A stretch of 64,000 bases of DNA. Origin: Candidatus Allochristensenella caecavium (GTDB lineage Bacteria; Bacillota; Clostridia; Christensenellales; QAND01). Where the stretch lies: assembly GCA_904397865.1 (NCBI GenBank), contig CAJFOS010000013.1, positions 1 through 64,000 on the forward strand, in the 5' to 3' direction. The position numbers were made by a program, and so were the translations under genes. Shown one piece after another: positions 227-12,980 of the stretch (positions are counted from its first letter, which is position 1; each line of letters begins with the position of its first letter). Below the pieces are notes generated by a model. That model searched no databases. It saw only the letters and a program-made list of their open reading frames with translations, and was not told the DNA's origin.

Positions 227-1513
227 ATGAGTGAACTGAGGTATGCCAATATCGCGCTGGATATTTTCAGCATGATGCTATCCTCGCTGCCCGTTATTTA
301 TCTGATTAGCAACCATCGATATCGGCTAAAGCTGAATCAATATTTTTTGGGAATATGTCTTTCGAATATTCTCATGACAGTGGGAGACTTGGGGGACTGG
401 ATGATGCCCGCCGTCATCACGCTATCGGATAGGGTGACGCTGATGGTTCTTACGGTTCTCTATTATGCGGCCTCTGCATTTATCTTATATTTTTTTATAC
501 GGTATATCATAGAATACCTGCAACTGAGAGGGCGTGTAAAACAGGCATGCTTGCTTTACACAATATGCCTTTGCAGCGTACAGATTATTTTTGCCGCAAT
601 AAGCCCGTTTACCGGTTCGATTTTTCGTGTTACGGTTGACGGATATCAACGCGGTCCGTTGTTTTTGTTATCACAGTTCATCCCGTTGTTTTGCTATATT
701 CTTTGCATCGTGCTGGTGATTGCCTATCGAGATAAGCTTTCGCGGCGGGAAACGATGTTCTTTTTGCTCTATATCTTTCTTCCGTTGGGCAGCGGTACTG
801 CCCAGATGGCCATGCGAGGAATTGCCGTAGTCAATGCAAGCCTCACCATTGCCATGTTATTGATTTTAATGAATATTCAATTTGAACATGAGGTGGCGAT
901 GAAAGAGCAGGAAAAGGAGCTGGCCGAACGGCATATTGATGTCATGCTCAGCCAGATACAGCCCCATTTTCTATATAATTCGCTAAGTGTTATCTATCAT
1001 TTGTGCGAAGAAAATCCTGGAAAGGCGCAAAAGTCCATCAAAGAATTTTCCGCATTTCTGCGCGGAAATATGAATAGTTTGAAAGCCCGCAAACCGATTC
1101 CGTTTGAAACGGAACTCAACCATGTTATGAATTACCTTTATTTGGAACGGCAGCGGTTTCAGGAACGGCTGCATGTGGTCTGCCAGATACAGACGACGGA
1201 TTTTTACATTCCGCCTTTAACGCTCCAACCGCTGGTAGAAAATGCCGTGCAGCACGGGATTCTCAACAAAGACGAAGGCGGCACTATTTCCATCTGTACA
1301 AACAGGACGGCGGAATATGCCATTGTGACCATCATGGATAACGGAATTGGTATGGAAAAGGCGAAGACCTATACGGCGCATGGCGCGCACGCCCACATCG
1401 GGATTGAAAATGTCCGCCAGCGATTGAAAAGCATGGTCAACGGCACATTGGATATTGAAAGCAATGAACGTGGAACAGTGGTTACGCTGCAAATTCCGTG
1501 GACGGGGAGATAG
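227..1513 (+). CDS. Sensor histidine kinase, LytS/YehU-type, multi-TM N-terminus
   Basis: About 6 hydrophobic helices N-terminal. QIQPHFLYNSLSVI matches the His_kinase (PF06580) phospho-His motif. C-terminal GHKL ATPase motifs (ENAVQHG, DNGIGM, GTVVTLQIP). RBS GAGGTGAG upstream. Confidence 0.85.
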   Translation: MSELRYANIALDIFSMMLSSLPVIYLISNHRYRLKLNQYFLGICLSNILMTVGDLGDWMMPAVITLSDRVTLMVLTVLYYAASAFILYFFIRYIIEYLQLRGRVKQACLLYTICLCSVQIIFAAISPFTGSIFRVTVDGYQRGPLFLLSQFIPLFCYILCIVLVIAYRDKLSRRETMFFLLYIFLPLGSGTAQMAMRGIAVVNASLTIAMLLILMNIQFEHEVAMKEQEKELAERHIDVMLSQIQPHFLYNSLSVIYHLCEENPGKAQKSIKEFSAFLRGNMNSLKARKPIPFETELNHVMNYLYLERQRFQERLHVVCQIQTTDFYIPPLTLQPLVENAVQHGILNKDEGGTISICTNRTAEYAIVTIMDNGIGMEKAKTYTAHGAHAHIGIENVRQRLKSMVNGTLDIESNERGTVVTLQIPWTGR

Positions 1514-1525
1514 GAGGCGAGCACG

Positions 1526-2332
1526 ATGCGTTTTTTAGCGGTAGACGACGAAATCTATATACTGGAAGAAATGGTCAAAATCCTCCGCCGTGTCCAGCCC
1601 AAAACGGAAGTGCTGTCCTTTACGCGCCCGGATGAAGCGATTCGGGCGGCTGAGCGACAAACAATTGATGTTGCGTTTTTAGACATCCATCTGGGGAAAA
1701 TGTCCGGTTTGGAGCTTGCAGTGAGACTCAAAAATATCAAGCCGGATATGCACATTATTTTCGTAACGGGCTATCAGGAATACGCTGTGGATGCATTCCG
1801 CATGCATGCAACGGGATATCTGCTCAAGCCGGTGGATGAAAATGATGTAAAGCGGGAATTAACGTTTATTTACGAGGAAGCCCCCCAGAGAAAGAGGATA
1901 TCGGTACAAACCTTTGGCGGATTTGAACTGTTTGTAGACGGACGGCCAGTTCATTTCGGCCGTGCGAAATCCAAAGAGCTGCTGGCCTACCTGGTGGACC
2001 ATCGGGGGGCAGTCGTTACGGCGGCGGAAGCGCGAGCTGCGCTGTTTGAGGAAATGGGGAATACTGGTACGTCCAAGAGTTACTTTCATCAACTGGTGTA
2101 TGAACTAAAAAATGCCTTAAAGAAGGCAGGGGCGTCGGAAATCCTTACCAAAGGATTTAATGGCTATGCCGTTGTCCCGGAAAAATTTGACTGCGATTAT
2201 TACCGGCTCCTGCAAGGGGACCCAATTGCCATTAATCAATACCAGAATGATTATATGCCGTTATATAGTTGGGGAGAAGCGCACAACGCCGAACTCTGGC
2301 TCAAGCATGTATATGCCACCCCGCCTGAATAA
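1526..2332 (+). CDS. Response regulator: receiver domain plus OmpR/SARP-type winged-helix DNA-binding domain
   Basis: Receiver signature (VDDE...DIHL...K). C-terminal FGGFELFVDGRPVHFGRAKSKELLAYLV...LWL pattern typical of trans_reg_C/SARP wHTH. 13-nt gap to the kinase gene, so an operon. Confidence 0.8.
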   Translation: MRFLAVDDEIYILEEMVKILRRVQPKTEVLSFTRPDEAIRAAERQTIDVAFLDIHLGKMSGLELAVRLKNIKPDMHIIFVTGYQEYAVDAFRMHATGYLLKPVDENDVKRELTFIYEEAPQRKRISVQTFGGFELFVDGRPVHFGRAKSKELLAYLVDHRGAVVTAAEARAALFEEMGNTGTSKSYFHQLVYELKNALKKAGASEILTKGFNGYAVVPEKFDCDYYRLLQGDPIAINQYQNDYMPLYSWGEAHNAELWLKHVYATPPE

Positions 2333-2397
2333 AAAGCAATATCCGTTCATCGGGGAACCAATGGCAGGGTAGCTGCATCAGCGCACCATTGCCGGCA

Positions 2398-2436
2398 AGC
2401 AAAAGCTCCGGGAGAAACTCCTCGGAGCTTTTGCTT
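2398..2436 (+). terminator. Rho-independent terminator after the two-component pair
   Basis: Inverted repeat aaaagctccggg-agaaac-tcctcggagctttt followed by a T-rich tail. Confidence 0.55.
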
Positions 2437-2523
2437 ATTGTGATTTAACCGGCGGATTTGTAAGGGTTTTGTGATGCGCGGTCAGTAGAATGAAATTGTA
2501 TAAGCAAAGAAGTGGGGGATACC

Positions 2524-3516
2524 ATGACAATTTTGCTCGTTGACAGCGATAAAAGGGCGCTGGACCGGGAAGCCAAACGCCTGGCGGACCAGCAATCTGC
2601 CGCCATGGTTGTCCTGCACAGCAACGCCAACGATGCCTTGAAATTTGCAATGTATCATGATGTGCATATTGTTTTTACAAGACCCGCACTGGTGGAGATG
2701 TCCGGCCAAGAATTGATTGAAAAAATACTTCGCTTCAAGCCGGAAGTGGAATGCCATATGCTCGCACAGGGCGAGGAAGTTCCGCTTGTGTACTTTCTGG
2801 GTAAAGACAAAGATGCGTTCCGTTCCGAGAACGTAAGTGACAGCCACACAAAGATGAATGATACAAAAGGTGAAATGCATACAATCAAGAATAAGAAGAG
2901 GTCGGGAAACGATTCTCCTCAAGAGGGGCAAAAGAAAGGCGATACACATATGACGGAACGGCAGTTACGCAGTTTGGGCAGAAAAGAACTTTTGGAAATG
3001 ATGATTGAACAGGGAAAAGAACTGGAGTTTGTCAAATCGGAACATGCAAAAGATTTGGAATTTGTAAAAGCGGAGCACGAGAAAGAAATAAATGCGTTAA
3101 AACAAGAGCTGGAGAAAGCCCGCGCAGCCCTGCAGAACCGGGAAATCGCTATCAATGAAGCGGGCTCGATTGCGGTGGCGGCCCTTCAGATAAACGGGAT
3201 TTTTGAAGCGGCGCAGGCCGCGAGCCAGCAATATATCGAAAATATCCGTACGCTCAATGACCGGCAGGCGGCGCTCTGTGCCCAGCGGGAGGAAGCAAGC
3301 CGGGCCGAAGCCGAACGGCGGCTGAGAGAGACGGCCGCCAAATGTAAGACCATGGAGGCGGCGTGCCGGGACAAATGCGCGGCGATGGAACGCGATGCAC
3401 AACAGCGTTCGGAAGCATACTGGACGGAGGTTTCCAAACGCCTGCAATCATTCTATGAGAATCATCAGGAGCTGAAAAAACTCCTGGGTTATAGCATCCC
3501 AGGGATTCAAATATAA
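2524..3516 (+). CDS. Hypothetical protein: degenerate (pseudo-)receiver domain fused to a long coiled-coil
   Basis: N-terminal 100 aa align to the upstream receiver (ILLVDSD...VHIVFTRPALVEMSGQEL), but the phospho-acceptor Asp position is T/R. Low-complexity linker, then a heptad-rich coiled coil with the tandem repeat ELEFVKSEHAKDLEFVKAEHEKE. RBS GTGGGGGA. Confidence 0.6.
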   Translation: MTILLVDSDKRALDREAKRLADQQSAAMVVLHSNANDALKFAMYHDVHIVFTRPALVEMSGQELIEKILRFKPEVECHMLAQGEEVPLVYFLGKDKDAFRSENVSDSHTKMNDTKGEMHTIKNKKRSGNDSPQEGQKKGDTHMTERQLRSLGRKELLEMMIEQGKELEFVKSEHAKDLEFVKAEHEKEINALKQELEKARAALQNREIAINEAGSIAVAALQINGIFEAAQAASQQYIENIRTLNDRQAALCAQREEASRAEAERRLRETAAKCKTMEAACRDKCAAMERDAQQRSEAYWTEVSKRLQSFYENHQELKKLLGYSIPGIQI

Positions 3517-3529
3517 ACGGAGTGCCGGT

Positions 3530-4114
3530 ATGAAACGCAAATCAATCACCTGTTTGCCCACGGTACAGCAACTGGAGCAGGAACTGAAACGGGAAGCCTA
3601 TCGGAAGCGGTATCGGAGAATGTTGGGCAGTACGATTTCGACGCTCATCGTTGTGGCGGCGGCTGTCGTGCTGATATCCCATCTTTTGCTGCCCATCCTG
3701 CGGATTTACGGTACGTCGATGACGCCGACTCTGACGGACGGCAACATTGTTGCAGCTATAAGAAAAGGTTCCTATGAGCGCGCAGACATCATCGCTTTTT
3801 ATTACAATAACAAAATTCTGGTAAAACGTGTGATTGGCTTGCCGGGGGAATGGATAGACATGGATGAAAACGGCAATGTGAGCATCAACGGGCAAACCTT
3901 GCAGGAGCCGTATTTGAAAGAAAAAGCGTTCGGGGAATGTGATATCCAGTTCCCTTACCAGGTGCCTGACAGCCGATATTTTGTCATGGGAGACCATCGC
4001 AGTGTTTCCAGCGATTCCCGTAACAGCGATGTAGGGTGTGTGTCAGAGGAGGATATCGTGGGGACGTTGGTCTTTCGGCTCTGGCCGCTGAACGAATTGG
4101 GCGAGATTGAATAG
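3530..4114 (+). CDS. Signal peptidase I, SipW/archaeal-ER type, pilus-associated
   Basis: N-terminal TM. Box B GTSMTPTL (Ser nucleophile). Box D VMGDHRSVSSDSR (His general base, SipW type). Sits immediately upstream of the pilin genes, as SipA/LepA does in streptococcal pilus islands. Confidence 0.8.
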   Translation: MKRKSITCLPTVQQLEQELKREAYRKRYRRMLGSTISTLIVVAAAVVLISHLLLPILRIYGTSMTPTLTDGNIVAAIRKGSYERADIIAFYYNNKILVKRVIGLPGEWIDMDENGNVSINGQTLQEPYLKEKAFGECDIQFPYQVPDSRYFVMGDHRSVSSDSRNSDVGCVSEEDIVGTLVFRLWPLNELGEIE

Positions 4115-4134
4115 TTTTGGGAGGGAGGTTTGCC

Positions 4135-7100
4135 ATGAAACCACAGGATAAACAAAATAAAATCCAGGAATATATACGGGAACACAAGTTGAGAAAACGC
4201 TGGCATAAGCTGACCGCTGTCCTGGCGGCAGCAGCGATTGTGGTAACGACTACCGTTATGGTTCTGCCGGCTCTTACCCTGGAGAACGGCCCGAAAGTGC
4301 TGGCGTGCCAGCTGAATCTCCATACCCATATTGCCAGCTGTTATGACGAATCGGGCAGCCTTGTTTGCGGATATGCGGATTTTGTTGCACATGTTCATAA
4401 CGAATCCTGCTACGCCGAAGACGGAACGTGCATTTGTTCGCTGGAAGAAATCCGGCCTCACACGCACGATGAATCATGCTACCAGGAAACACTCGCCCAA
4501 GTGTGTGGATTTGATGGTGAGGAGCATGCGCATACGGATGCTTGCTATATGATGGCGGACGAATTGGTTTGCGGGCAGGAAGAAACAGCGCCGCATGCCC
4601 ATACGGAAGATTGCTATGATGCGAATGAGGGCCTGGTTTGCAAACAATCGACAGACGCACATGTCCATACGGAACAATGTCATGCGCGTTCTGAGGAGCC
4701 AATCTGCGGCAAGGACGAGCAAATACATACGCATACCGACGCCTGTTATGAAGCCCATAGGGAATTGGTTTGCGGCAAAGAGGAAATCGTTTTGCATACC
4801 CACACTGCCAGCTGCTTTGATGCGGACGGCAAGCCGGTTTGCGGCAAGATGGAAGTCAGGGAACATATCCATGACGCCAGCTGCCTTCCTGCTGAAATCA
4901 AAACGGACAAACAAACAAGCTGGGCGACGGTGGATAAGAACGGATTCAAGGCTGCAAGAAGGCGCACTGCCGCCACAAACGCCTTGCGCGCGGCGCAGAG
5001 CGTGGACTTCACGCAGTATATTACACAAATGTCCCTTTCCAAAGCGGTTGATGGACAATGGGTACCGGTTACAGAGGTCACGACCGGCGATTCCATCCGG
5101 CTGAACATCCACTACACGATTCCAGAAAATGTGGTGGGGCCGGATTCTCGGGTGATTCACTACCAGCTGCCCAAGGGAATCGGGCTGGAGGAACAGGCAA
5201 CCGGACCGGTCACCATCGAAGGCAGTTATGCCGGCGAATACGTGATACAACCGGGAGGACTTATCCAGATTACCTTCACCCAGGCATTTGCCGACAACCG
5301 CCCCTTTACAGGGGAGCTGGAATTCCAAGGCATTGTTACCGCCACTGGCCAGGAAGGAGAAGAAGAAATTGATTTGGGCACTGCCGGCGGCACGGTCACG
5401 GTAAAACCGGATGAGGAGGCAACCGACCTTACCGTGGCCAAAGAAGGATGGTATGACAAGGAAAATAATCTTATTTACTACAGCATCACGGTGTCCAGTG
5501 AACAGGGAACGGATGGGCCGCTGACAATGGAAGATGCCTTTATGCATCAGCCGGATTATGGGGTTGTCAATTATAAAGAGGTAGTTGAATTCTATAAGCT
5601 GAATGCCGATGGAACCAAAACCCATCCCTTGGATGAGCAAAGCCTCTTGGCACTTTTGCATATAAGTGGCCAGACACCGGACAAAACCGCCTCTTTCACG
5701 CTGGGGCCCTTGCCGGCTTTAGGGGCTGGAGAATCGTATGTGTTTGCCTATACCGCTGAACCGGACCTGAATGTATCCGGCGACGCAAACGGCTATACGC
5801 AGTTTGCCAACACAGCGGTAGCCCATGACGACAGCCATTCCGCCCAAGCCAGTGTGAACATCAAAGTATCGGATACAATGGTTCACAAGGAAGGCGTATA
5901 CGACCCGTTGACGCAGAAAATCAAATGGTCGATTTATCTCAACGAGAGCCAGCGGGACATCGGCGGGCTGCGGCTGGAGGACACGCTTACCTACACGGCC
6001 AACGGACAGATATACACGGCGGATTTGCCGGAGACTGTCCAGATTGAACTGTTCCGGGATTACCAGCCGCTGGGGATTGTTGAAAACATATCGATTCCAT
6101 TCACCTTCCCGGAAAATTCCAACGTACAGTATCTGGTTACTTATGAAACGGAGATGCCGGCCAATCTCCCAGATGGAAGCTATGTTACTTTCCACAATAC
6201 GGTGCGGCTGGGAAGGTACGAGGTGGAAATTGACGTTGACGGTTACGCCCCCGGCGATTATGGGGTGATAAAGGGAATGACGGACGCCGATTCAGATACG
6301 GGCATTGTGGAATGGGCCGCGTCTATCGCACACCCGACACCCCTGGATATTCAAAAGCTGCACTATGTGGATTGGATTCCCAATCTGCTTCTGGCAGACG
6401 GCACATTTTTGCCGGGTAGCCATTACACTACCCCGCGGCTTCTGGCCGATTCGCTTCGGATTCAGGCGGTGGAGGGAGCGTTTCTGCAATACGGAACCGA
6501 CTATACGCTGCAGGCAGTCTCCAAAGCAGACGTTGAAGCCCTGATGGAGGAACTTAACCTGACGGATGAGAACCTGACCTGGGCAGTGCAGGAACTTTCA
6601 TATGAAGAGCTGTCGCAATACTTCCGCCTGCAGCCTATCGGAAGCTTTGAGCAGGATGAACCGCTTGGGCTGTTCTCCATCGAATTTCAGACGAGCGCCA
6701 TAGGGAAAATCGGCGAAGCCAGTCTTTTGCTTACCTACCACACGCAAGTGAATGTGAGCAATTTACCCGCAGGGGTTGAACGGGCGACGGTGGGGAATCT
6801 GGGGCGAATTCCGGATGGCTATATGCTGGCGCGGGGCAACATGTCCTTTGGTGCGAGGCTGAATAAACAGGCCAGCCAGACCGGTATCCCTGAGGCGGGC
6901 AAGGATTCCAGCTCCTATACCGATGTTCCGCTGACCGTCCATTCAGGCGATACAGATGGAATCCTACACTACCGAATCCTGATTTCCGATTATAGCAAAT
7001 ATAACGATGAGAATGCAGTCACGGTGACGGATACGCTGCCGGCCGGGGCCAAGCTTGTAAAGGATTCAGTCGTCTTGCGCAGCCATCCCAACGGGTTTAA

Positions 7101-8700
7101 CACCTTCGATGTCCAAACGACGGACCCCTGGTATATAGCGCAAGTTTCCACAGTTGAAAACCCGGACGGAACGACGGCGGTCACTTTCTTCATCTCGCAT
7201 ATCAAGGACCTAAGCGGAGCTCCCTTCGGCATCTACTATGACGTTTCCGTTGCGCAAGACGGAGAACTTATCAGCAGCGGCGAAAAGCAATATACCAACA
7301 CCGTGGCCTGGGATGGGGAAACCGACAGCACGACCACCACGGTAAAACACACCTTGCCCCGTCTGGAAAAGGTGGGAGAGCGGCTCCAAGCGGCGGAGGG
7401 GGCGGAAGAGCTTTCCGACAGGTTGCGCTACTATGTCACTATCAACCCGACGGGCGAACGGCTGAATCCGTATGACAACCACCTGACCTTGGAGGATGTG
7501 CTGAGCATCCCGGCTGGCAGCAGTGCGAGTTTTCCGCCGGATAGCGTAAGGCTTTACCGCTATAATTCAGCCGATGCGGAAAACCACTTCTGCGGGGAAG
7601 CCATCGACCCGTCGCTGTATTCCGCCGAGTACGATGGTGCGACACGGACGATTACGTTCACAATACCGGACCGGACCGCCTGCGTCCTGGTTTATGACTA
7701 TATCATTGACCGTGGAACAGCCGCCGGGGATTTGAACATCTTTAACACGGTAAAACTCAGCGGGCATGGGGAATTCTCTTCCGAATCGGGAATCGTTATG
7801 GAAGAGGAACAATCCTCCGCCACGGTGAATAAGGCGACGGTGACGATTTATAAGCACGAAAGCGGCAACTCGCTGCATCTGCTGCCTGGAGCAACGTTCC
7901 GGCTGGAACGATATGAACAGACCGGCGCTGGATACGAATGGCGGCAGACCTCCGCCACGGCGACAGGTGCGGGCGGATTGTTCGTAGTCGGTGAGGAAGG
8001 CAAGATTGTGCTGAGCTTTGTGAACGAAACCTCGCTGTACAATACGCTGTACCGCCTGCAGGAGATTGACGCCCCGGATGGGTATTTGAAGAGCGACGCC
8101 ACGTACTACTTTATCTGGGGTGAGCGGGGCGAGACAAAAGAGGCGGCGCTTGCGCGGATGCAGGAAAACGGAGCGCTGGGCAATGTGCCCCTGGAACAGA
8201 TTGGCTTTGTTGCTTTTTCCACCTCCCATGCCATCTATGTTCCCAATGAGCCCGATGCGTTGACCGTCGTCAAGACATGGCGCAACGACGCGGGCGAGGT
8301 TTTAGAACAAGCGCCGATAGGGGAGGTTACCATCCAGCTGTACCAGTGGAAGGACGGCGTGAAGACCGCCTATGGCAATCCGGTGGAACTAAATGCCGGA
8401 AACGGCTGGTCGTATACCTGGAATGCGCTGCCCAAAGTGGATGGGGACGGGAAATCTTATCATTACACGGTGGAGGAAGACCCCTTATCCGGTTTCCAGA
8501 TTGCATATGTCAACAATGAAGGCGTTCAGACTGGGATGATTGAGGTCGTCAATACGCAAAACGAATATGTCCTGCCGGAAACCGGTGGAGCGGGGCCAAG
8601 GTTCTTTTTCCTTGCAGGGCTGCTTCTTGCCGGAGCGTCTGCCGCCGGATACGTATATTTGAGGCGCAGACATCGGAAGGAGGGAATGCCCCTTCAATAA
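4135..8700 (+). CDS. Pilus tip adhesin / LPXTG surface protein with N-terminal Cys/His-rich tandem repeats
   Basis: Signal/TM segment. About 9 tandem H-x-H...C-Y...L-V-C-G units (aa 64-256). Central beta-rich region. E-box-like YRLQEIDAPDGY. C-terminal CnaB/SpaA-type isopeptide domain (VVKTWRND...YHYTVEE). LPETGG, hydrophobic span, then RRRHRK tail. The ORF track starts at TTG 4117; ATG 4135 follows RBS GGGAGGGAGG. Confidence 0.85.
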   Translation: MKPQDKQNKIQEYIREHKLRKRWHKLTAVLAAAAIVVTTTVMVLPALTLENGPKVLACQLNLHTHIASCYDESGSLVCGYADFVAHVHNESCYAEDGTCICSLEEIRPHTHDESCYQETLAQVCGFDGEEHAHTDACYMMADELVCGQEETAPHAHTEDCYDANEGLVCKQSTDAHVHTEQCHARSEEPICGKDEQIHTHTDACYEAHRELVCGKEEIVLHTHTASCFDADGKPVCGKMEVREHIHDASCLPAEIKTDKQTSWATVDKNGFKAARRRTAATNALRAAQSVDFTQYITQMSLSKAVDGQWVPVTEVTTGDSIRLNIHYTIPENVVGPDSRVIHYQLPKGIGLEEQATGPVTIEGSYAGEYVIQPGGLIQITFTQAFADNRPFTGELEFQGIVTATGQEGEEEIDLGTAGGTVTVKPDEEATDLTVAKEGWYDKENNLIYYSITVSSEQGTDGPLTMEDAFMHQPDYGVVNYKEVVEFYKLNADGTKTHPLDEQSLLALLHISGQTPDKTASFTLGPLPALGAGESYVFAYTAEPDLNVSGDANGYTQFANTAVAHDDSHSAQASVNIKVSDTMVHKEGVYDPLTQKIKWSIYLNESQRDIGGLRLEDTLTYTANGQIYTADLPETVQIELFRDYQPLGIVENISIPFTFPENSNVQYLVTYETEMPANLPDGSYVTFHNTVRLGRYEVEIDVDGYAPGDYGVIKGMTDADSDTGIVEWAASIAHPTPLDIQKLHYVDWIPNLLLADGTFLPGSHYTTPRLLADSLRIQAVEGAFLQYGTDYTLQAVSKADVEALMEELNLTDENLTWAVQELSYEELSQYFRLQPIGSFEQDEPLGLFSIEFQTSAIGKIGEASLLLTYHTQVNVSNLPAGVERATVGNLGRIPDGYMLARGNMSFGARLNKQASQTGIPEAGKDSSSYTDVPLTVHSGDTDGILHYRILISDYSKYNDENAVTVTDTLPAGAKLVKDSVVLRSHPNGFNTFDVQTTDPWYIAQVSTVENPDGTTAVTFFISHIKDLSGAPFGIYYDVSVAQDGELISSGEKQYTNTVAWDGETDSTTTTVKHTLPRLEKVGERLQAAEGAEELSDRLRYYVTINPTGERLNPYDNHLTLEDVLSIPAGSSASFPPDSVRLYRYNSADAENHFCGEAIDPSLYSAEYDGATRTITFTIPDRTACVLVYDYIIDRGTAAGDLNIFNTVKLSGHGEFSSESGIVMEEEQSSATVNKATVTIYKHESGNSLHLLPGATFRLERYEQTGAGYEWRQTSATATGAGGLFVVGEEGKIVLSFVNETSLYNTLYRLQEIDAPDGYLKSDATYYFIWGERGETKEAALARMQENGALGNVPLEQIGFVAFSTSHAIYVPNEPDALTVVKTWRNDAGEVLEQAPIGEVTIQLYQWKDGVKTAYGNPVELNAGNGWSYTWNALPKVDGDGKSYHYTVEEDPLSGFQIAYVNNEGVQTGMIEVVNTQNEYVLPETGGAGPRFFFLAGLLLAGASAAGYVYLRRRHRKEGMPLQ

Positions 8701-8768: not shown

Positions 8769-10487
8769 ATGAAAAAACTGAAAAAACTGGCGGCGGCTTT
8801 ACTGTCGCTGGCCATGACGGCGATGCTCGCTGTCCCGGCCTTTGCGCAGGCAGGTGATTATTCCATCACCATCAGCAACACAAATGCAAACCATACCTAT
8901 ACCGCCTACCAGATTTTCAAGGGCGATGTTTCCGGCGGGACTGGGGATGGCACAACGGGCAACAGCACCTATCTTTTATCCAACATTGAATGGGGCTCCG
9001 GCGTGCAGAATATCAGCGGTCTGCTCACTGCGCTGAAAACCCAAGCGGGATTTACATCGCTAACCGACCAGTCCACCGCTGCTGATGTGGCAAAGCTGCT
9101 GGACAGTGCCGCGGATTTGGAGACCTTCCTGACGGTGCTCAATGGGACGCCCGGTTACCTGAGCAGTACGGCCGCGGGGACAGCTACGCCTGGCGCAGGG
9201 ATGACTGCATGCACCATCAACCTGACCGAGGGCGGTTATTATCTGGTCAAGGATAGCCTTGCCGGAGAAACCCCCGACGACTTCGTCAGCGATTATATCG
9301 TTCAGGTCCTGGGCCAGGAAACCATGGCCCCCAAAGGCGATAAGCCCACCGTTGAAAAGAAGGTCTATGAGGAGAGTCTCTCCGCCGCCACCACGGACTG
9401 GGGCAATGGCTACAACGACGTAGCGGACTATGATATCGGTGATGCCGTCCCCTTTAAGATTGTTGCCTCCATCCCTGACATGACCGGTTATAACGGTTAT
9501 GAGTTTGTTATCACTGACACCCTCTCCAATGGACTGACCTTGGCCGAGGACACGCTTCAGGTCTACGTAACCGCTGCCAAGGACACCGCGCTGGATGCGC
9601 TGACTCCGCTGAGTGCGGGAACGGATTACACGCTGGCCACTACGGACATTGGTGATGCGAGTTTTACCCTCACCTTTGAGAACATGGAGGAGAATGAGGA
9701 TTTTACCGCTTCAGATGATAATTACATCATTGTCACTTATACTGCAACGCTGAATGAAAATGCGGAAATTGGCCTGGACGGCAATCCCAACGAGGTTGAC
9801 CTGACCTATTCCAATGACCCCAACGGCAAAGGCAAAGGGAAAACCCCCAAGGATTATGTTGTCGTGTTCACGTATGAACTGGACGGCACGAAGGTCGATG
9901 GAAAAAATACGGAGACCAAACTTAAGGATGCGGAATTTGTCCTGTTGAACAACGCCGGTACTCAGGTAGCGAAGATAGACAGCAACGGCAAGTTTGACGG
10001 CTGGGTGAATGTGCCGGATGGTTCCGGTGACGCCGGTGCAATCACCTATGGTGACTGGACGACATTTAATCAGACCCACAAGGTCATCATGACCTCTGCG
10101 GAGACATCCGGCAGCTTCGGCATTTCCGGGCTGGACGAGGGCGCCTATCTCCTGCGGGAGATAAAGGCTCCTGAGGGCTACAATCTAATCAAGAACGACC
10201 AGACGCTGGTCATCGCCGCCAGCACCGGCGAAGTGCAGAATTATAATGGGACGGCTTCCAGTGTACTGACTACCCTGACGCTTAAAGTCGGCGAGGAGGA
10301 ACCGAAGGCCGGCAATGTGGCCGACGGTACCGTGGCCATTGAGGTGCCCAATAATGCCGGCGCTACGCTGCCTGAAACCGGGGGCGTCGGTACGACTATC
10401 TTCTTCGTGCTGGGCGGTGTGATGTTGCTTGGAGCGGGCATCCTTCTGACTGTGCGAATTCGCATGAAGGCTACCAATCGCCAATAA
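8769..10487 (+). CDS. Major (backbone) pilin subunit, LPXTG-anchored
   Basis: Signal peptide MKKLKKLAAALLSLAMTAMLAVPAFA. E-box YLLREIKAPEGYNL. LPETGG plus TM plus RIRMK tail. Thr/Gly-rich Ig-like regions. Strong RBS GGGAGGAG. Confidence 0.85.
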   Translation: MKKLKKLAAALLSLAMTAMLAVPAFAQAGDYSITISNTNANHTYTAYQIFKGDVSGGTGDGTTGNSTYLLSNIEWGSGVQNISGLLTALKTQAGFTSLTDQSTAADVAKLLDSAADLETFLTVLNGTPGYLSSTAAGTATPGAGMTACTINLTEGGYYLVKDSLAGETPDDFVSDYIVQVLGQETMAPKGDKPTVEKKVYEESLSAATTDWGNGYNDVADYDIGDAVPFKIVASIPDMTGYNGYEFVITDTLSNGLTLAEDTLQVYVTAAKDTALDALTPLSAGTDYTLATTDIGDASFTLTFENMEENEDFTASDDNYIIVTYTATLNENAEIGLDGNPNEVDLTYSNDPNGKGKGKTPKDYVVVFTYELDGTKVDGKNTETKLKDAEFVLLNNAGTQVAKIDSNGKFDGWVNVPDGSGDAGAITYGDWTTFNQTHKVIMTSAETSGSFGISGLDEGAYLLREIKAPEGYNLIKNDQTLVIAASTGEVQNYNGTASSVLTTLTLKVGEEEPKAGNVADGTVAIEVPNNAGATLPETGGVGTTIFFVLGGVMLLGAGILLTVRIRMKATNRQ

Positions 10488-10558: not shown

Positions 10559-11419
10559 ATGAAAAATGATGATTTAAAAAAGAACAAGAGAGTTTCCATC
10601 CTGTTGATAATCGTTTTTTTTGCAGGGTTGTTTTTACTGCTGTATCCAGTGGTCAGCGATTATTGGAACTCGCTGTATCAATCACGTGCTATTTCCTCTT
10701 ATGTAGATGTGGTGACGGAGATGGATGACGACTCGTATGAAGACATGTGGAAGCAAGCGCAGGCGTATAACGCCGCCCTGCAGGGCAATCCAAACCGTTT
10801 CCAGCCCAGTGAGGAGCAAAGGAAAAACGGTGAAAAGCTGTTGGATGTCACGGGGAATGGCATCATCGGCTATGTCGAAATTCCATCGATTGACGTCATG
10901 CTGCCCATTTATCACGGAACCGATGAGGAGGTTTTGCAAGTCGCCATTGGACATGTTGAAGGCTCCTCTCTCCCGATAGGCGGTGCAGGAACGCATTGTG
11001 TCATATCCGGTCACCGTGGGCTGCCTTCCTCCAGATTGTTTACCGACCTGGACCAGCTGGCGGAGGGAGATATCTTCATTCTGCGGGTGTTGGATGAAAC
11101 GCTGACCTATGAGGTGGACCAAATCCGCATTGTAGAGCCGGAGGATATCTCTTTATTGGGAATCGAAGAGGGGAAGGACTTTTGTACCTTGGTGACCTGT
11201 ACGCCGTATGGCGTCAATTCCCACCGCCTTTTGGTACGGGGCCATCGGGTAGAGAATCAGCAGACATTCCAAACGCTGCGCGTTACGGCGGATGCGATGC
11301 TGGTTGATGCACGCCTGGTTGCACCAATACTCGCAATCCCCATTCTGCTGGTTCTTGTATTGCTGGTGGCGCTGCGGCCGCTGATGAGAAAAAGAAAATC
11401 CGAAAGAGGTGATAAATAG
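10559..11419 (+). CDS. srtC: Class C (pilus-polymerising) sortase
   Basis: N-terminal TM. Catalytic His (VISGHRG). TLVTCTPYG Cys motif. LLVRGHRV Arg. C-terminal hydrophobic anchor plus KRK tail, typical of class C. Confidence 0.85.
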   Translation: MKNDDLKKNKRVSILLIIVFFAGLFLLLYPVVSDYWNSLYQSRAISSYVDVVTEMDDDSYEDMWKQAQAYNAALQGNPNRFQPSEEQRKNGEKLLDVTGNGIIGYVEIPSIDVMLPIYHGTDEEVLQVAIGHVEGSSLPIGGAGTHCVISGHRGLPSSRLFTDLDQLAEGDIFILRVLDETLTYEVDQIRIVEPEDISLLGIEEGKDFCTLVTCTPYGVNSHRLLVRGHRVENQQTFQTLRVTADAMLVDARLVAPILAIPILLVLVLLVALRPLMRKRKSERGDK

Positions 11420-12364
11420 ATGAAAATCCGCATGCCTTGGAAGCGCATTGGAGCGACGTTATTGGCTGTCGTGATGGGAATCGGCTGCATATCGGCTGCC
11501 GCGTTTGCCCGGGAAAGTATCGAGACTGACAGGGCAACTTCGCTAAGCATATATTTTGGTGCAGATGGAATCGGGTTTTCTGCAGTGAACTTTTCCATTT
11601 ATCGCGTGGCAAATACTTCGGAAAACGGCGCCTTCACATTGACGGGAGATTTTGCCGACTATTCCGTCAACCTGGAGGACCTGGATAGCTCCGGCTGGCG
11701 GGCGCTGGCCCAGACGCTCGCCGTTTATACGGCACGGGATGAATTGAAACCGCTTCGTACGCAGAGAACCGGACAGGGTGGACGGGTCAGCTTTGCGGGC
11801 CTTGCCGTGGGATTGTATTTGGTAATCGGTGAGGAATATGCAGATGCAAACGCCATCTATACCCCGGAACCCATGTTGGTATCCCTTCCGGAATGGACGG
11901 AGGAGGGGGACTGGAACTACGGCATAGAGGCCACATGTAAATTTGACCGTAGGGATAAGACGCCTGGGCGGGTAAGCCGTAAGGTACAGAAGGTTTGGAA
12001 GGATGACGGCAATGAGGACACGCGGCCCAAAGAGATTTCCGTGCAGCTTCTGGAGAACGGGACTGTTGTCGATACCGTCCTATTGAACAAGAAAAATAAC
12101 TGGGAATATACGTGGGAGAATTTAGACAGCAACGCAAGGTGGCAGGTGGTCGAATCGGAAGTGCCGGCTGGATACACCGTCACCGTAGCGCAGGAAGGAA
12201 CGATATTTGTCATAACGAATACCCGCCCGTATGAACCGCCGCCCAAACTGCCTCAAACAGGAATGCTGTGGTGGCCAGTGCCAGTGCTTGCCTGCGGCGG
12301 ATTGTTGTTGGTATTAGCTGGATGGATGGTGCGGCGTAAGCAGGGAGATTCCCATGGAAAGTAA
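11420..12364 (+). CDS. Minor/basal pilin with CnaB-type domain, LPQTG-anchored
   Basis: Signal peptide. CnaB-like KVQKVWKDDGNEDTRPKEISVQLLENG...YTVTV. Pro-rich PYEPPPK preceding LPQTGM plus TM plus RRKQ. Start overlaps the srtC stop (translational coupling). Confidence 0.75.
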   Translation: MKIRMPWKRIGATLLAVVMGIGCISAAAFARESIETDRATSLSIYFGADGIGFSAVNFSIYRVANTSENGAFTLTGDFADYSVNLEDLDSSGWRALAQTLAVYTARDELKPLRTQRTGQGGRVSFAGLAVGLYLVIGEEYADANAIYTPEPMLVSLPEWTEEGDWNYGIEATCKFDRRDKTPGRVSRKVQKVWKDDGNEDTRPKEISVQLLENGTVVDTVLLNKKNNWEYTWENLDSNARWQVVESEVPAGYTVTVAQEGTIFVITNTRPYEPPPKLPQTGMLWWPVPVLACGGLLLVLAGWMVRRKQGDSHGK

Positions 12365-12980
12365 AAGAAAAGGAGGAACAGCCCTTATAGCGCTCGGGCT
12401 GCTGCTCATTGCAGCGGCCCTTTTTCTAATCGGATATAATCTGTTTGACGAATACAGAGCCGGGAAAACGGCTCGCCGAGTATTGGCAATGCTGCGGGAA
12501 CAAGCCCCCATTGACGCTGGCATCCCGGAAGTATCGTCGCCGGGCAAGGAAGTCGTTCCAGATTACGTGCGCAACCCGGACATGGAGATGCCGACCAGAG
12601 AGGTTGAAGGCAATGATTATATCGGGATTTTAGAGATTCCGTCATTAGAGCTTTCTTTACCGGTGATGAGCAGATGGAGCTATCCCAAGCTGAAAATTGC
12701 GCCATGCCGCTACAGCGGCTCCGCTTACGAGGGAAACCTGACGATTGTAGCGCATAATTACCGCACCCACTTTGCATCGGTGCGAGATGTTCCGGTTGGG
12801 ACCCGGGTGCTGTTTACCGATGTAAAAGGGCGCATCTTTGCTTATGAGGTTGCGGCGATTGAAACAGTTGAAGCCAATGCCGTCCAGGAAGTGGTGAACG
12901 CTGCATGGGATTTGACGCTTGTTACTTGTACGCCAGGCGGGCAGGCCCGTGTCGCTGTGCGATGTGTAAAGGCGGGATAA
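12354..12980 (+). CDS. Second sortase-family transpeptidase
   Basis: N-terminal TM. His (IVAHNYRTHF). LTLVTCTPGG Cys motif. conserved Arg (ARVAVRC). Overlaps the basal pilin gene end. Confidence 0.7.
   Translation: MESKRKGGTALIALGLLLIAAALFLIGYNLFDEYRAGKTARRVLAMLREQAPIDAGIPEVSSPGKEVVPDYVRNPDMEMPTREVEGNDYIGILEIPSLELSLPVMSRWSYPKLKIAPCRYSGSAYEGNLTIVAHNYRTHFASVRDVPVGTRVLFTDVKGRIFAYEVAAIETVEANAVQEVVNAAWDLTLVTCTPGGQARVAVRCVKAG

Follow-up and report, generated by a model that had tools for sequence, protein, structure and literature searches.

What does a protein that carries a dead signalling domain do at the head of a pilus operon? The question is raised by a gene at positions 2524-3516 of a 64,000-nucleotide stretch of DNA, here called the window, from Candidatus Allochristensenella caecavium (assembly GCA_904397865.1, contig CAJFOS010000013.1, positions 1 to 64,000 of the forward strand). 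The gene lies between a two-component system, made up of a sensor histidine kinase and a response regulator, and a set of pilus genes. An earlier note on this DNA had read its product as an orphan pseudo-receiver fused to a repetitive coiled coil, which might serve as a decoy or connector in signalling or as a DivIVA-like scaffold for pilus assembly. Sortase pili are usually described as needing no more than pilins, sortases, general secretion, and sometimes a signal-peptidase-like helper. The analysis described here places the weight on the other end of the protein: the receiver is an accessory, and the core is an undescribed and widespread cytoplasmic partner of the signal peptidases encoded in pilus operons.

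The open reading frame running from ATG 2524 to the stop codon at 3516 is real. It encodes 330 amino acids and has GGGGGA 7 nt before the ATG. This start is favoured over a GTG at 2512 because all homologues begin with MT(I/V)LLVDSD. Within a sortase-pilus operon the gene is the first cistron, and the helical protein that it encodes is followed by signal peptidase I, a tip adhesin, a backbone pilin, a sortase, a minor pilin, and another sortase. The coordinates of all features are collected in Table 1.

A large family of helical proteins

When residues 143-330 were used alone as the query, the helical module was found mostly as a free-standing protein of 135-200 amino acids in many Clostridia; across the family as a whole, the free-standing form usually measures 90-200 amino acids. 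A profile run against 1.84 billion representative proteins returned 3,529 clusters (50% identity) at E <= 1e-10, and when a single genome from each GTDB species was scanned for the family pattern, relatives were detected in at least 494 genomes. The carriers include Oscillospiraceae, Lachnospiraceae, Christensenellales, Peptococcaceae, Tissierellia, and Erysipelotrichaceae. All relatives retrieved from RefSeq, GenBank, and UniRef are named 'hypothetical protein', and none of them 'DNA repair protein'. The module has no family match in Pfam, NCBIfam, PHROG, or PADLOC, nor in the PDB by sequence or by profile. Matches found in the libraries (Apolipoprotein, Rad50, ZorA, and the like) were at chance level only, and a phage or defence-system origin of the module found no support in PHROGs or PADLOC. 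The C-terminal two-thirds of the window protein is a member of this very large, undescribed Clostridial family of helical proteins, which are probably cytoplasmic, no signal peptide or membrane segment being visible in the sequence.

The family is defined by two motifs, an N-motif and an invariant core (alignment A1), and the window protein contains both of them. The consensus of the N-motif is M-T-E-x-E-L-R-x-L-S-R-x-E-L-L-E-M-L-I-x-Q, in which M143, L151, R153, L156, L157, and Q163 are nearly invariant. That of the core is A-G-S-I-A-x-A-A-L-x-x-N-G-x-F-E-A-A-Q-x-A-x-Q-Q-Y, with A213, G214, S215, F227, A230, Q231, Q236, and Y237 invariant. The segment between the two is variable in length and houses 11-residue repeats, and minimal relatives of 86-106 amino acids retain the N-motif and the core and nothing more. 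In the predicted model of one relative, the helix is interrupted at the A-G-S/T position of the core. Five metagenome proteins in which the module is joined to unrelated fragments (P0140, P0155, P0156, P0188, and P0189) were excluded. Their fragments correspond to a kinase membrane region, an HD domain, AlbA_2, and UVR, and the proteins are probably chimeric assemblies or gene calls.

An AlphaFold2 model of the 330-amino-acid protein was built with an 80-sequence alignment. In this model, residues 153-322 are predicted to form a single long helix of about 170 residues. The coiled coil of the earlier note stands as one long helix and falls as a clean heptad pattern: support for a clean heptad coiled coil is moderate at most, with about five register shifts and a periodicity z of about 2. 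The linker that had been called low-complexity corresponds to residues 99-139, which are predicted to be disordered, and it differs in length and sequence between homologues. The near-exact tandem repeat was confirmed; it has a 33-nt period, and its 11-residue unit varies in copy number from one homologue to another. A variant of 402 amino acids (P0016-P0120; L007, L008) carries an additional helical insert of about 70 residues. It occurs in about a hundred separate 90%-identity clusters, with many metagenome contigs and one member named Acutalibacter, and suggests that the length of the helical spacer is fast-evolving.

The signal peptidase partner

Gene context was counted by mapping the window proteins with phmmer onto the open reading frames of 80 genome loci. 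A signal peptidase I gene lies immediately downstream of the helical gene in 71 of the 79 informative loci. The two genes overlap by 4 nt in 25 of these 71, and most of the others are separated by a gap of 15 nt or less; the gap in the window is 13 nt. The association also appears from the side of the peptidase. In a metagenome scan for the peptidase subfamily, restricted to loci with at least 600 nt of upstream sequence (n = 70), the helical gene was found directly upstream in 65, and gene calls on metagenome contigs reproduce the order of the operon. Genes for a tip adhesin, backbone pilin, sortase, or minor pilin are present within the fetched flank at 65 of the 80 genome loci, and the helical-gene/peptidase pair is also known without pilus genes, e.g., at L017 and L079-L081. 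In Fusicatenibacter (L013 / L046 8513-10444), the free-standing helical gene overlaps the start of a gene for a predicted lipoprotein-like protein of 643 amino acids, not a peptidase, and this protein has no family match.

The partner peptidase shows a mean column identity of 69% across orders and keeps its catalytic Ser63 and Lys99. Its cytoplasmic tail, next to the membrane, is conserved as well. In the window it reads P-x-V-x-Q-L-E-x-E-L-K-R-x-x-Y-R-x-R-Y, and the consensus across orders is P-x-(V/I)-x-x-L-E-x-E-L-x-R-x-x-Y-(K/R)-x-R-Y, with E18 invariant and P10, L15, L19, and R21 nearly invariant. The pattern R-x-x-(Y/H)-(R/K) was detected in 118 of 147 peptidase tails. Besides the two motifs, the family is recognized by a position directly upstream of a signal peptidase I with an LExELxRxxY(K/R)xRY tail, and this is the position that the window gene occupies.

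The receiver-like N-terminus

Residues 3-85 of the window protein match Pfam Response_reg with E 2.2e-4 and 21.8 bits, below the 30.2-bit cut-off, and the match spans profile positions 1-81 of 111. In the AlphaFold2 model, residues 1-88 are arranged as strand1-helix1-strand2-helix2-strand3-helix3-strand4, with a predicted local distance difference test score (pLDDT) of 85-98. The comparison with CheY-like receivers that had been proposed for this region gives a receiver fold. The top Foldseek matches in the PDB are all receiver domains (PorX, RcsB, Spo0F, DctD, and others), aligned over 80-85 columns with a root-mean-square deviation of 1.3-2.7 Å, and a profile of the domain matches PDB receivers at E 4e-6. 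As modelled, the fold is truncated: the N-terminal domain is a receiver without its last third, helix4-strand5-helix5.

The phospho-acceptor, reported as absent in the earlier note, is indeed replaced. Arg53 (AGA, 2680-2682) aligns with Asp54 of the adjacent regulator in BLASTP, and with the acceptor Asp of PDB receivers in phmmer and profile alignments. This Arg is invariant across 18 representative homologues. An intact acceptor Asp was sought among the homologues and none was found, the position being Arg throughout this subfamily and Glu in a second fused subfamily. The acidic pocket (LLVDSD), which had been described as present, is retained in part: D7 and D9 are there, but the second acidic residue has given way to S8, Ala81 occupies the place of the Thr, and the conserved Lys has been lost together with strand 5. 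Because Arg replaces the phospho-Asp and the domain ends after strand 4, the truncated receiver, as judged from its residues, cannot act as a phospho-switch. The full five-strand/five-helix fold, the acceptor Asp, and the acidic pair/Thr/Lys set of a canonical PF00072 domain are all missing, and what is left corresponds to a bacterial pseudo-receiver, with a recognizable receiver fold and without the phosphotransfer residues.

The N-terminus had also been called clearly homologous to the receiver of the adjacent regulator. It is receiver-like, and the similarity is generic, with 25% identity at E 4e-4 in BLASTP. The truncated-receiver profile scores the adjacent regulator at 27.9 bits vs 30.3 bits for the best unrelated PDB receiver. 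An origin of the domain by duplication of the neighbouring regulator is unsupported, since neighbouring regulators score 12-32 bits and the best unrelated PDB receiver 30.

The receiver fusion is restricted to loci with an adjacent kinase/regulator pair. The regulator adjoins the fused gene in 19 of 19 loci (15 genome loci plus L005, L007, L009, and L100), and an orthologous kinase of about 430 amino acids is adjacent in 18 of them, contig L028 ending inside the regulator gene. The kinase/regulator pair is inverted in one metagenome fused locus. Conversely, the gene is present at 19/19 of the related kinase/regulator/pilus loci examined. The word 'orphan' was thus misapplied, with the pair next door in every fused locus. 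Neither kinase nor regulator was found at 56 of the 65 non-fused genome loci (56 of 80 overall), and there are regulator-linked operons with an unfused helical protein (L051, L053, L058, L073, and L076).

The truncated receiver is one of three interchangeable add-ons that occupy the same operon position, the others being a full Glu-type receiver and a helix-loop-helix domain. In P0422 (L100 3703-4812), the receiver is complete (Pfam E 8.5e-18, profile positions 1-110 of 111) and carries Glu where the acceptor Asp would be. It is joined to the same helical module, within a kinase / regulator / X / peptidase / pilus arrangement like that of the window. This receiver shares 33% identity with the regulator next to it (E 2e-21), which in turn is 43% identical to the window regulator. 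The helix-loop-helix N-domain, with a conserved G-F-x-P-D-(D/E)-V motif, is found in P0386, P0395, and P0447, and these variants also sit between a regulator gene and the peptidase gene. At L102 1512-2549 (P0386) and L088 1381-1875, the module is fused to, or lies beside, a helix-loop-helix domain with G-(F/Y)-x-x-D-(D/E)-V. On a neighbouring homologue of the helix-loop-helix relatives, the DivIVA profile of Pfam reaches E 0.065, which is not significant, and a single-sequence PDB search with one such relative found nothing relevant.

Promoter and control of the operon

The helical gene starts its own transcription unit, as a terminator-like hairpin follows the regulator gene. Two 11-bp direct repeats at the -35 region and a candidate -10 hexamer, TAGAAT, lie between the two. 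The hexamer was not called by an automatic promoter scan, owing to a poor -35; homologues carry TATACT, TATAAT, or TATGCT at the equal offset. Related repeats (TTTGTTGCGCT twice or TTTGTAACGCT twice) were found upstream of the gene in 16 of 16 fused loci with readable upstream sequence, where the repeats stand about 62-75 nt ahead of the start codon, with a -10-like hexamer after them. Among period-11 repeats they rank first at each of the 15 fused genome loci and at five regulator-linked loci with a free-standing helical gene; the strict 11-bp pattern occurs in none of 56 regulator-free loci. This distribution suggests that the repeats are likely the binding site of the neighbouring regulator. 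Tandem 11-bp repeats over the -35 fit a winged-helix activator, and the regulator (Pfam Response_reg E 2e-21) has a weak Trans_reg_C match.

Another arrangement was seen in the regulator-free relative L015, in which a tyrosine recombinase gene lies upstream of the free-standing helical gene. Two 26-nt inverted repeats (7653-7678 and 7893-7918, 96% complementary) flank 214 nt between the recombinase and the helical gene. These repeats could be an invertible promoter, which would imply phase-variable pili. Different control devices seem to feed the same operon, with regulator repeats in the window and an element resembling an invertible promoter in L015. In every case the helical gene is the first cistron, directly after the control element of its lineage.

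Proposed function and alternatives

The preferred reading, to which a probability of about 0.4 is assigned, is that the helical module acts as a cytoplasmic adaptor on the peptidase tail, connected to the two-component system by the dead receiver. The phosphorylated neighbouring regulator would bind the two 11-bp direct repeats and switch on the operon. The helical protein would oligomerise via its long helix and dock on the signal peptidase, at the juxtamembrane tail rich in Arg and Tyr. Docked there, it might serve as a cytosolic adaptor or scaffold that organizes the site or manner of pilin-precursor processing and hand-over to the sortases, in a role analogous to that of GpsB on the tails of cell-wall synthases. 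Through the dead receiver, the adaptor would also touch the kinase or the regulator, a contact that could either co-localize signalling and assembly or feed the output of the operon back on the two-component system, and the interchangeable N-terminal modules would add further contacts. The more far-reaching proposal, that the helical protein is an unrecognized cytoplasmic component of sortase-pilus biogenesis in gut Clostridia, holding the peptidase by its tail and with it the site of pilin processing and assembly, and that its fused form couples this site to the kinase or regulator, so that signalling would act post-translationally on secretion and assembly in addition to transcription, is rather unlikely.

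Several observations weigh against the adaptor. At eight genome loci no peptidase gene adjoins the helical gene, and five peptidase loci have no helical gene. Gene adjacency would fit a regulatory role equally well, and the heptad pattern of the helix is irregular. On the side of the receiver, profile scores give the truncated domain no special similarity to the receiver of the neighbouring regulator, and the missing helix4-strand5-helix5 is the segment through which receivers usually dimerise and a part of the surface on which the kinase docks. The resemblance to GpsB is also uncertain in the helix-loop-helix relatives: a four-sequence profile of their N-domain reached GpsB in the PDB at E 0.07-0.1, below significance, and Foldseek on the predicted model of this domain found no matches.

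The decoy or connector proposed in the earlier note is the best placed of the alternatives, though doubtful. In its pure form, the dead receiver competes for the kinase or binds the regulator, and the helix merely dimerises; as the first product of a regulator-activated operon, the protein would then close a feedback loop on pilus expression. The strict co-occurrence of the fusion with the kinase/regulator pair and an operon promoter with regulator-specific repeats agree with this, as does the complete receiver of P0422, with its 33% identity to the neighbouring regulator and its phosphomimetic-like Glu. Pseudo-receivers, moreover, commonly work through protein-protein contacts (PMC12632262). 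However, the conserved part of the protein is the helical module, which occurs mostly in operons without a two-component system and has the signal peptidase as its steady companion, and an invariant core of 30 residues is unexpected in a simple dimerisation tag. The truncated receiver has lost its helix4-strand5-helix5 face and is no nearer to the neighbouring regulator than unrelated receivers are, and regulator-linked operons with an unfused helical protein exist. A decoy or connector role may apply to the receiver part, and cannot represent the core function of a module that is mostly free of receiver and of two-component system (56 of 80 genome loci).

Two further explanations leave the receiver aside. 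The module could be a gene regulator of the pilus operon, such as an anti-activator, an RNA-binding factor, or an antiterminator partner, its adjacency to the peptidase being mere layout. A gene that always comes first, right after the control element of its lineage, would suit such a factor, and at many pilus loci a dedicated regulator is encoded upstream. The proposal is nevertheless improbable: Pfam, NCBIfam, and profile searches detected no domain for binding DNA or RNA, the 4-nt overlap with the peptidase gene points to production of the two proteins in stoichiometric amounts, the helical-protein/peptidase pair is known without pilus genes, and the conserved cytoplasmic tail of the peptidase would be left unexplained. 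Still less probable is a role in secretion, as a chaperone or targeting factor that works in the cytoplasm on the very large pilin precursors, with tip adhesins of 1,500-1,700 amino acids. The protein is small, helical, and cytoplasmic, and is encoded with its putative clients, in the manner of small helical export chaperones; yet peptidase pairs exist without pilins, conservation tracks the peptidase and not the variable adhesins, and there is no similarity to known chaperones.

Relation to known systems

The combination of domains had been thought undescribed, and this is true of the sequence family and not of the architecture. FrzS and AglZ of Myxococcus xanthus likewise consist of an N-terminal pseudo-receiver without the phospho-Asp and a long C-terminal coiled coil (PMC1974792, PMC12632262). 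FrzS controls a pilus machine through protein-protein contacts and is not an orphan (PMC1974792, PMC9811614, PMC12632262). It has a complete five-stranded receiver, of which the helix3-strand4-helix4 surface is used, whereas the window receiver is truncated and carries Arg at the acceptor position. FrzS also serves type IV pili at the cell poles of a Gram-negative bacterium, and the window gene, from another phylum, belongs to a sortase-pilus/signal-peptidase operon of Clostridia. FrzS was absent from the PDB sequence matches (E <= 1), the profile matches (E <= 0.01), and the top 50 fold matches; the helical-module profile has no PDB relative.

Pseudo-receivers are common and their mechanisms mostly unknown, Glu being the commonest replacement at the acceptor position (PMC12632262). 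P0422 is of this Glu type, like plant pseudo-response regulators and many bacterial examples; the window protein differs in its Arg and in the lost third of the fold.

The closest parallel to the proposed docking is offered by GpsB and DivIVA of Firmicutes, cytoplasmic coiled coils that bind short, helical, Arg-containing juxtamembrane tails of single-pass extracytoplasmic enzymes and thereby organize these enzymes (PMC6335420). In cell-wall enzymes, the tails recognized by GpsB carry membrane-proximal Arg motifs, for example SRxxR(R/K) or TRxxYR, and the R-x-x-Y-(R/K) near the membrane in the peptidase tail resembles these motifs (PMC6335420). The window protein, in contrast, has no detectable homology to GpsB or DivIVA, and its putative client would be a signal peptidase in place of a peptidoglycan synthase. 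The DivIVA-like label given to it at first was not upheld, as the 330-amino-acid protein has no Pfam DivIVA match at E <= 0.1.

SipA is a catalytically inactive chaperone-like protein, unlike the window peptidase, which keeps its Ser/Lys dyad. In the SipA/LepA loci of Streptococcus pyogenes, a gene of the signal-peptidase family likewise stands among pilins and a sortase (PMC4049620), and the sortase-pilus locus of Clostridium perfringens VR-10B likewise has an adjacent two-component system (PMC8088525). Neither of these loci has been described with a cytoplasmic helical gene (PMC4049620, PMC8088525).

Organization of the locus

Table 1. Features of the pilus locus in the window, in order of position.
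Feature	Positions	Strand	Evidence or remark
Sensor histidine kinase: multi-pass membrane N-terminus, His_kinase (PF06580), HATPase_c	227-1513	+	Pfam
Response regulator: intact receiver (Asp54), OmpR/SARP-like winged-helix C-terminus	1526-2332	+	Pfam
Terminator-like hairpin, 16 pairs then T-run, closing the kinase/regulator unit	2397-2436	+	
Two 11-bp direct repeats (TTTGTAAGGGT / TTTGTGATGCG), candidate regulator site at the -35 region	2457-2478	+	
Candidate -10 hexamer TAGAAT	2486-2491	+	Read from sequence
Pseudo-receiver / linker / helical-module protein, 330 aa, first pilus-operon gene	2524-3516	+	
Truncated pseudo-receiver, aa 1-88, strands 1-4 and helices 1-3	2524-2787	+	Pfam, AlphaFold2, Foldseek, alignments
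Disordered, poorly conserved linker, aa 99-139	2818-2940	+	pLDDT below 50
Conserved N-motif of the helical module (MTERQLRSLGRKELLEMMIEQGK)	2950-3018	+	Alignment A1
33-nt tandem repeat encoding the 11-residue repeat ELEFVKSEHAK / DLEFVKAEHEK	3007-3087	+	2.1-2.5 copies
Invariant family core (NEAGSIAVAALQINGIFEAAQAASQQYIENI)	3154-3246	+	Alignment A1
Signal peptidase I (S26), intact Ser63/Lys99 dyad	3530-4114	+	Pfam, NCBIfam, alignment A2, adjacency counts
Conserved cytoplasmic juxtamembrane peptidase tail, candidate docking site for the helical protein	3530-3628	+	Alignment A2
Tip adhesin	4117-8700	+	Cna_B, SpaA, LPXTG domains (Pfam)
Backbone pilin	8769-10487	+	Pfam
Pilus sortase	10559-11419	+	Pfam
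Minor/basal pilin	11420-12364	+	Pfam
Second sortase	12354-12980	+	Pfam Sortase match on the identical gene in L001

The tip adhesin, an extracellular protein, has a repeat region of its own. Residues 69-257 (window 4321-4887) comprise nine tandem repeats of about 23 amino acids with the pattern H-x-H-x3-C-(Y/F)-x6-8-C-G, each unit containing two His and two Cys. The His/Cys repeat is present in at least three copies in 50 of 61 large tip-adhesin open reading frames from related loci. Pfam gives a weak Kazal_2 match on these repeats and nothing else, and the region resembles a row of small metal-binding knuckles. The tip adhesin of L100 carries a CHAP domain.

Implications

An unannotated, conserved cytoplasmic gene, present in thousands of clusters and nearly always paired with a dedicated peptidase, heads pilus operons in gut Clostridia and their relatives. 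The family provides natural experiments, in that the module is found on its own or joined to a dead truncated receiver, a complete Glu-type pseudo-receiver, or another helical N-domain, and in operons placed under a two-component system or an apparent invertible promoter. Carriers such as Guopingia tenuis, Anaeromassilibacillus senegalensis, and Floccifex porci are in culture, which makes the question directly testable. If the gene turned out to be a feedback decoy, it would add a new example of a pseudo-receiver, a more ordinary outcome. Under the adaptor reading, the helical gene is a candidate for organizing the assembly sites of pili from the cytoplasmic side.

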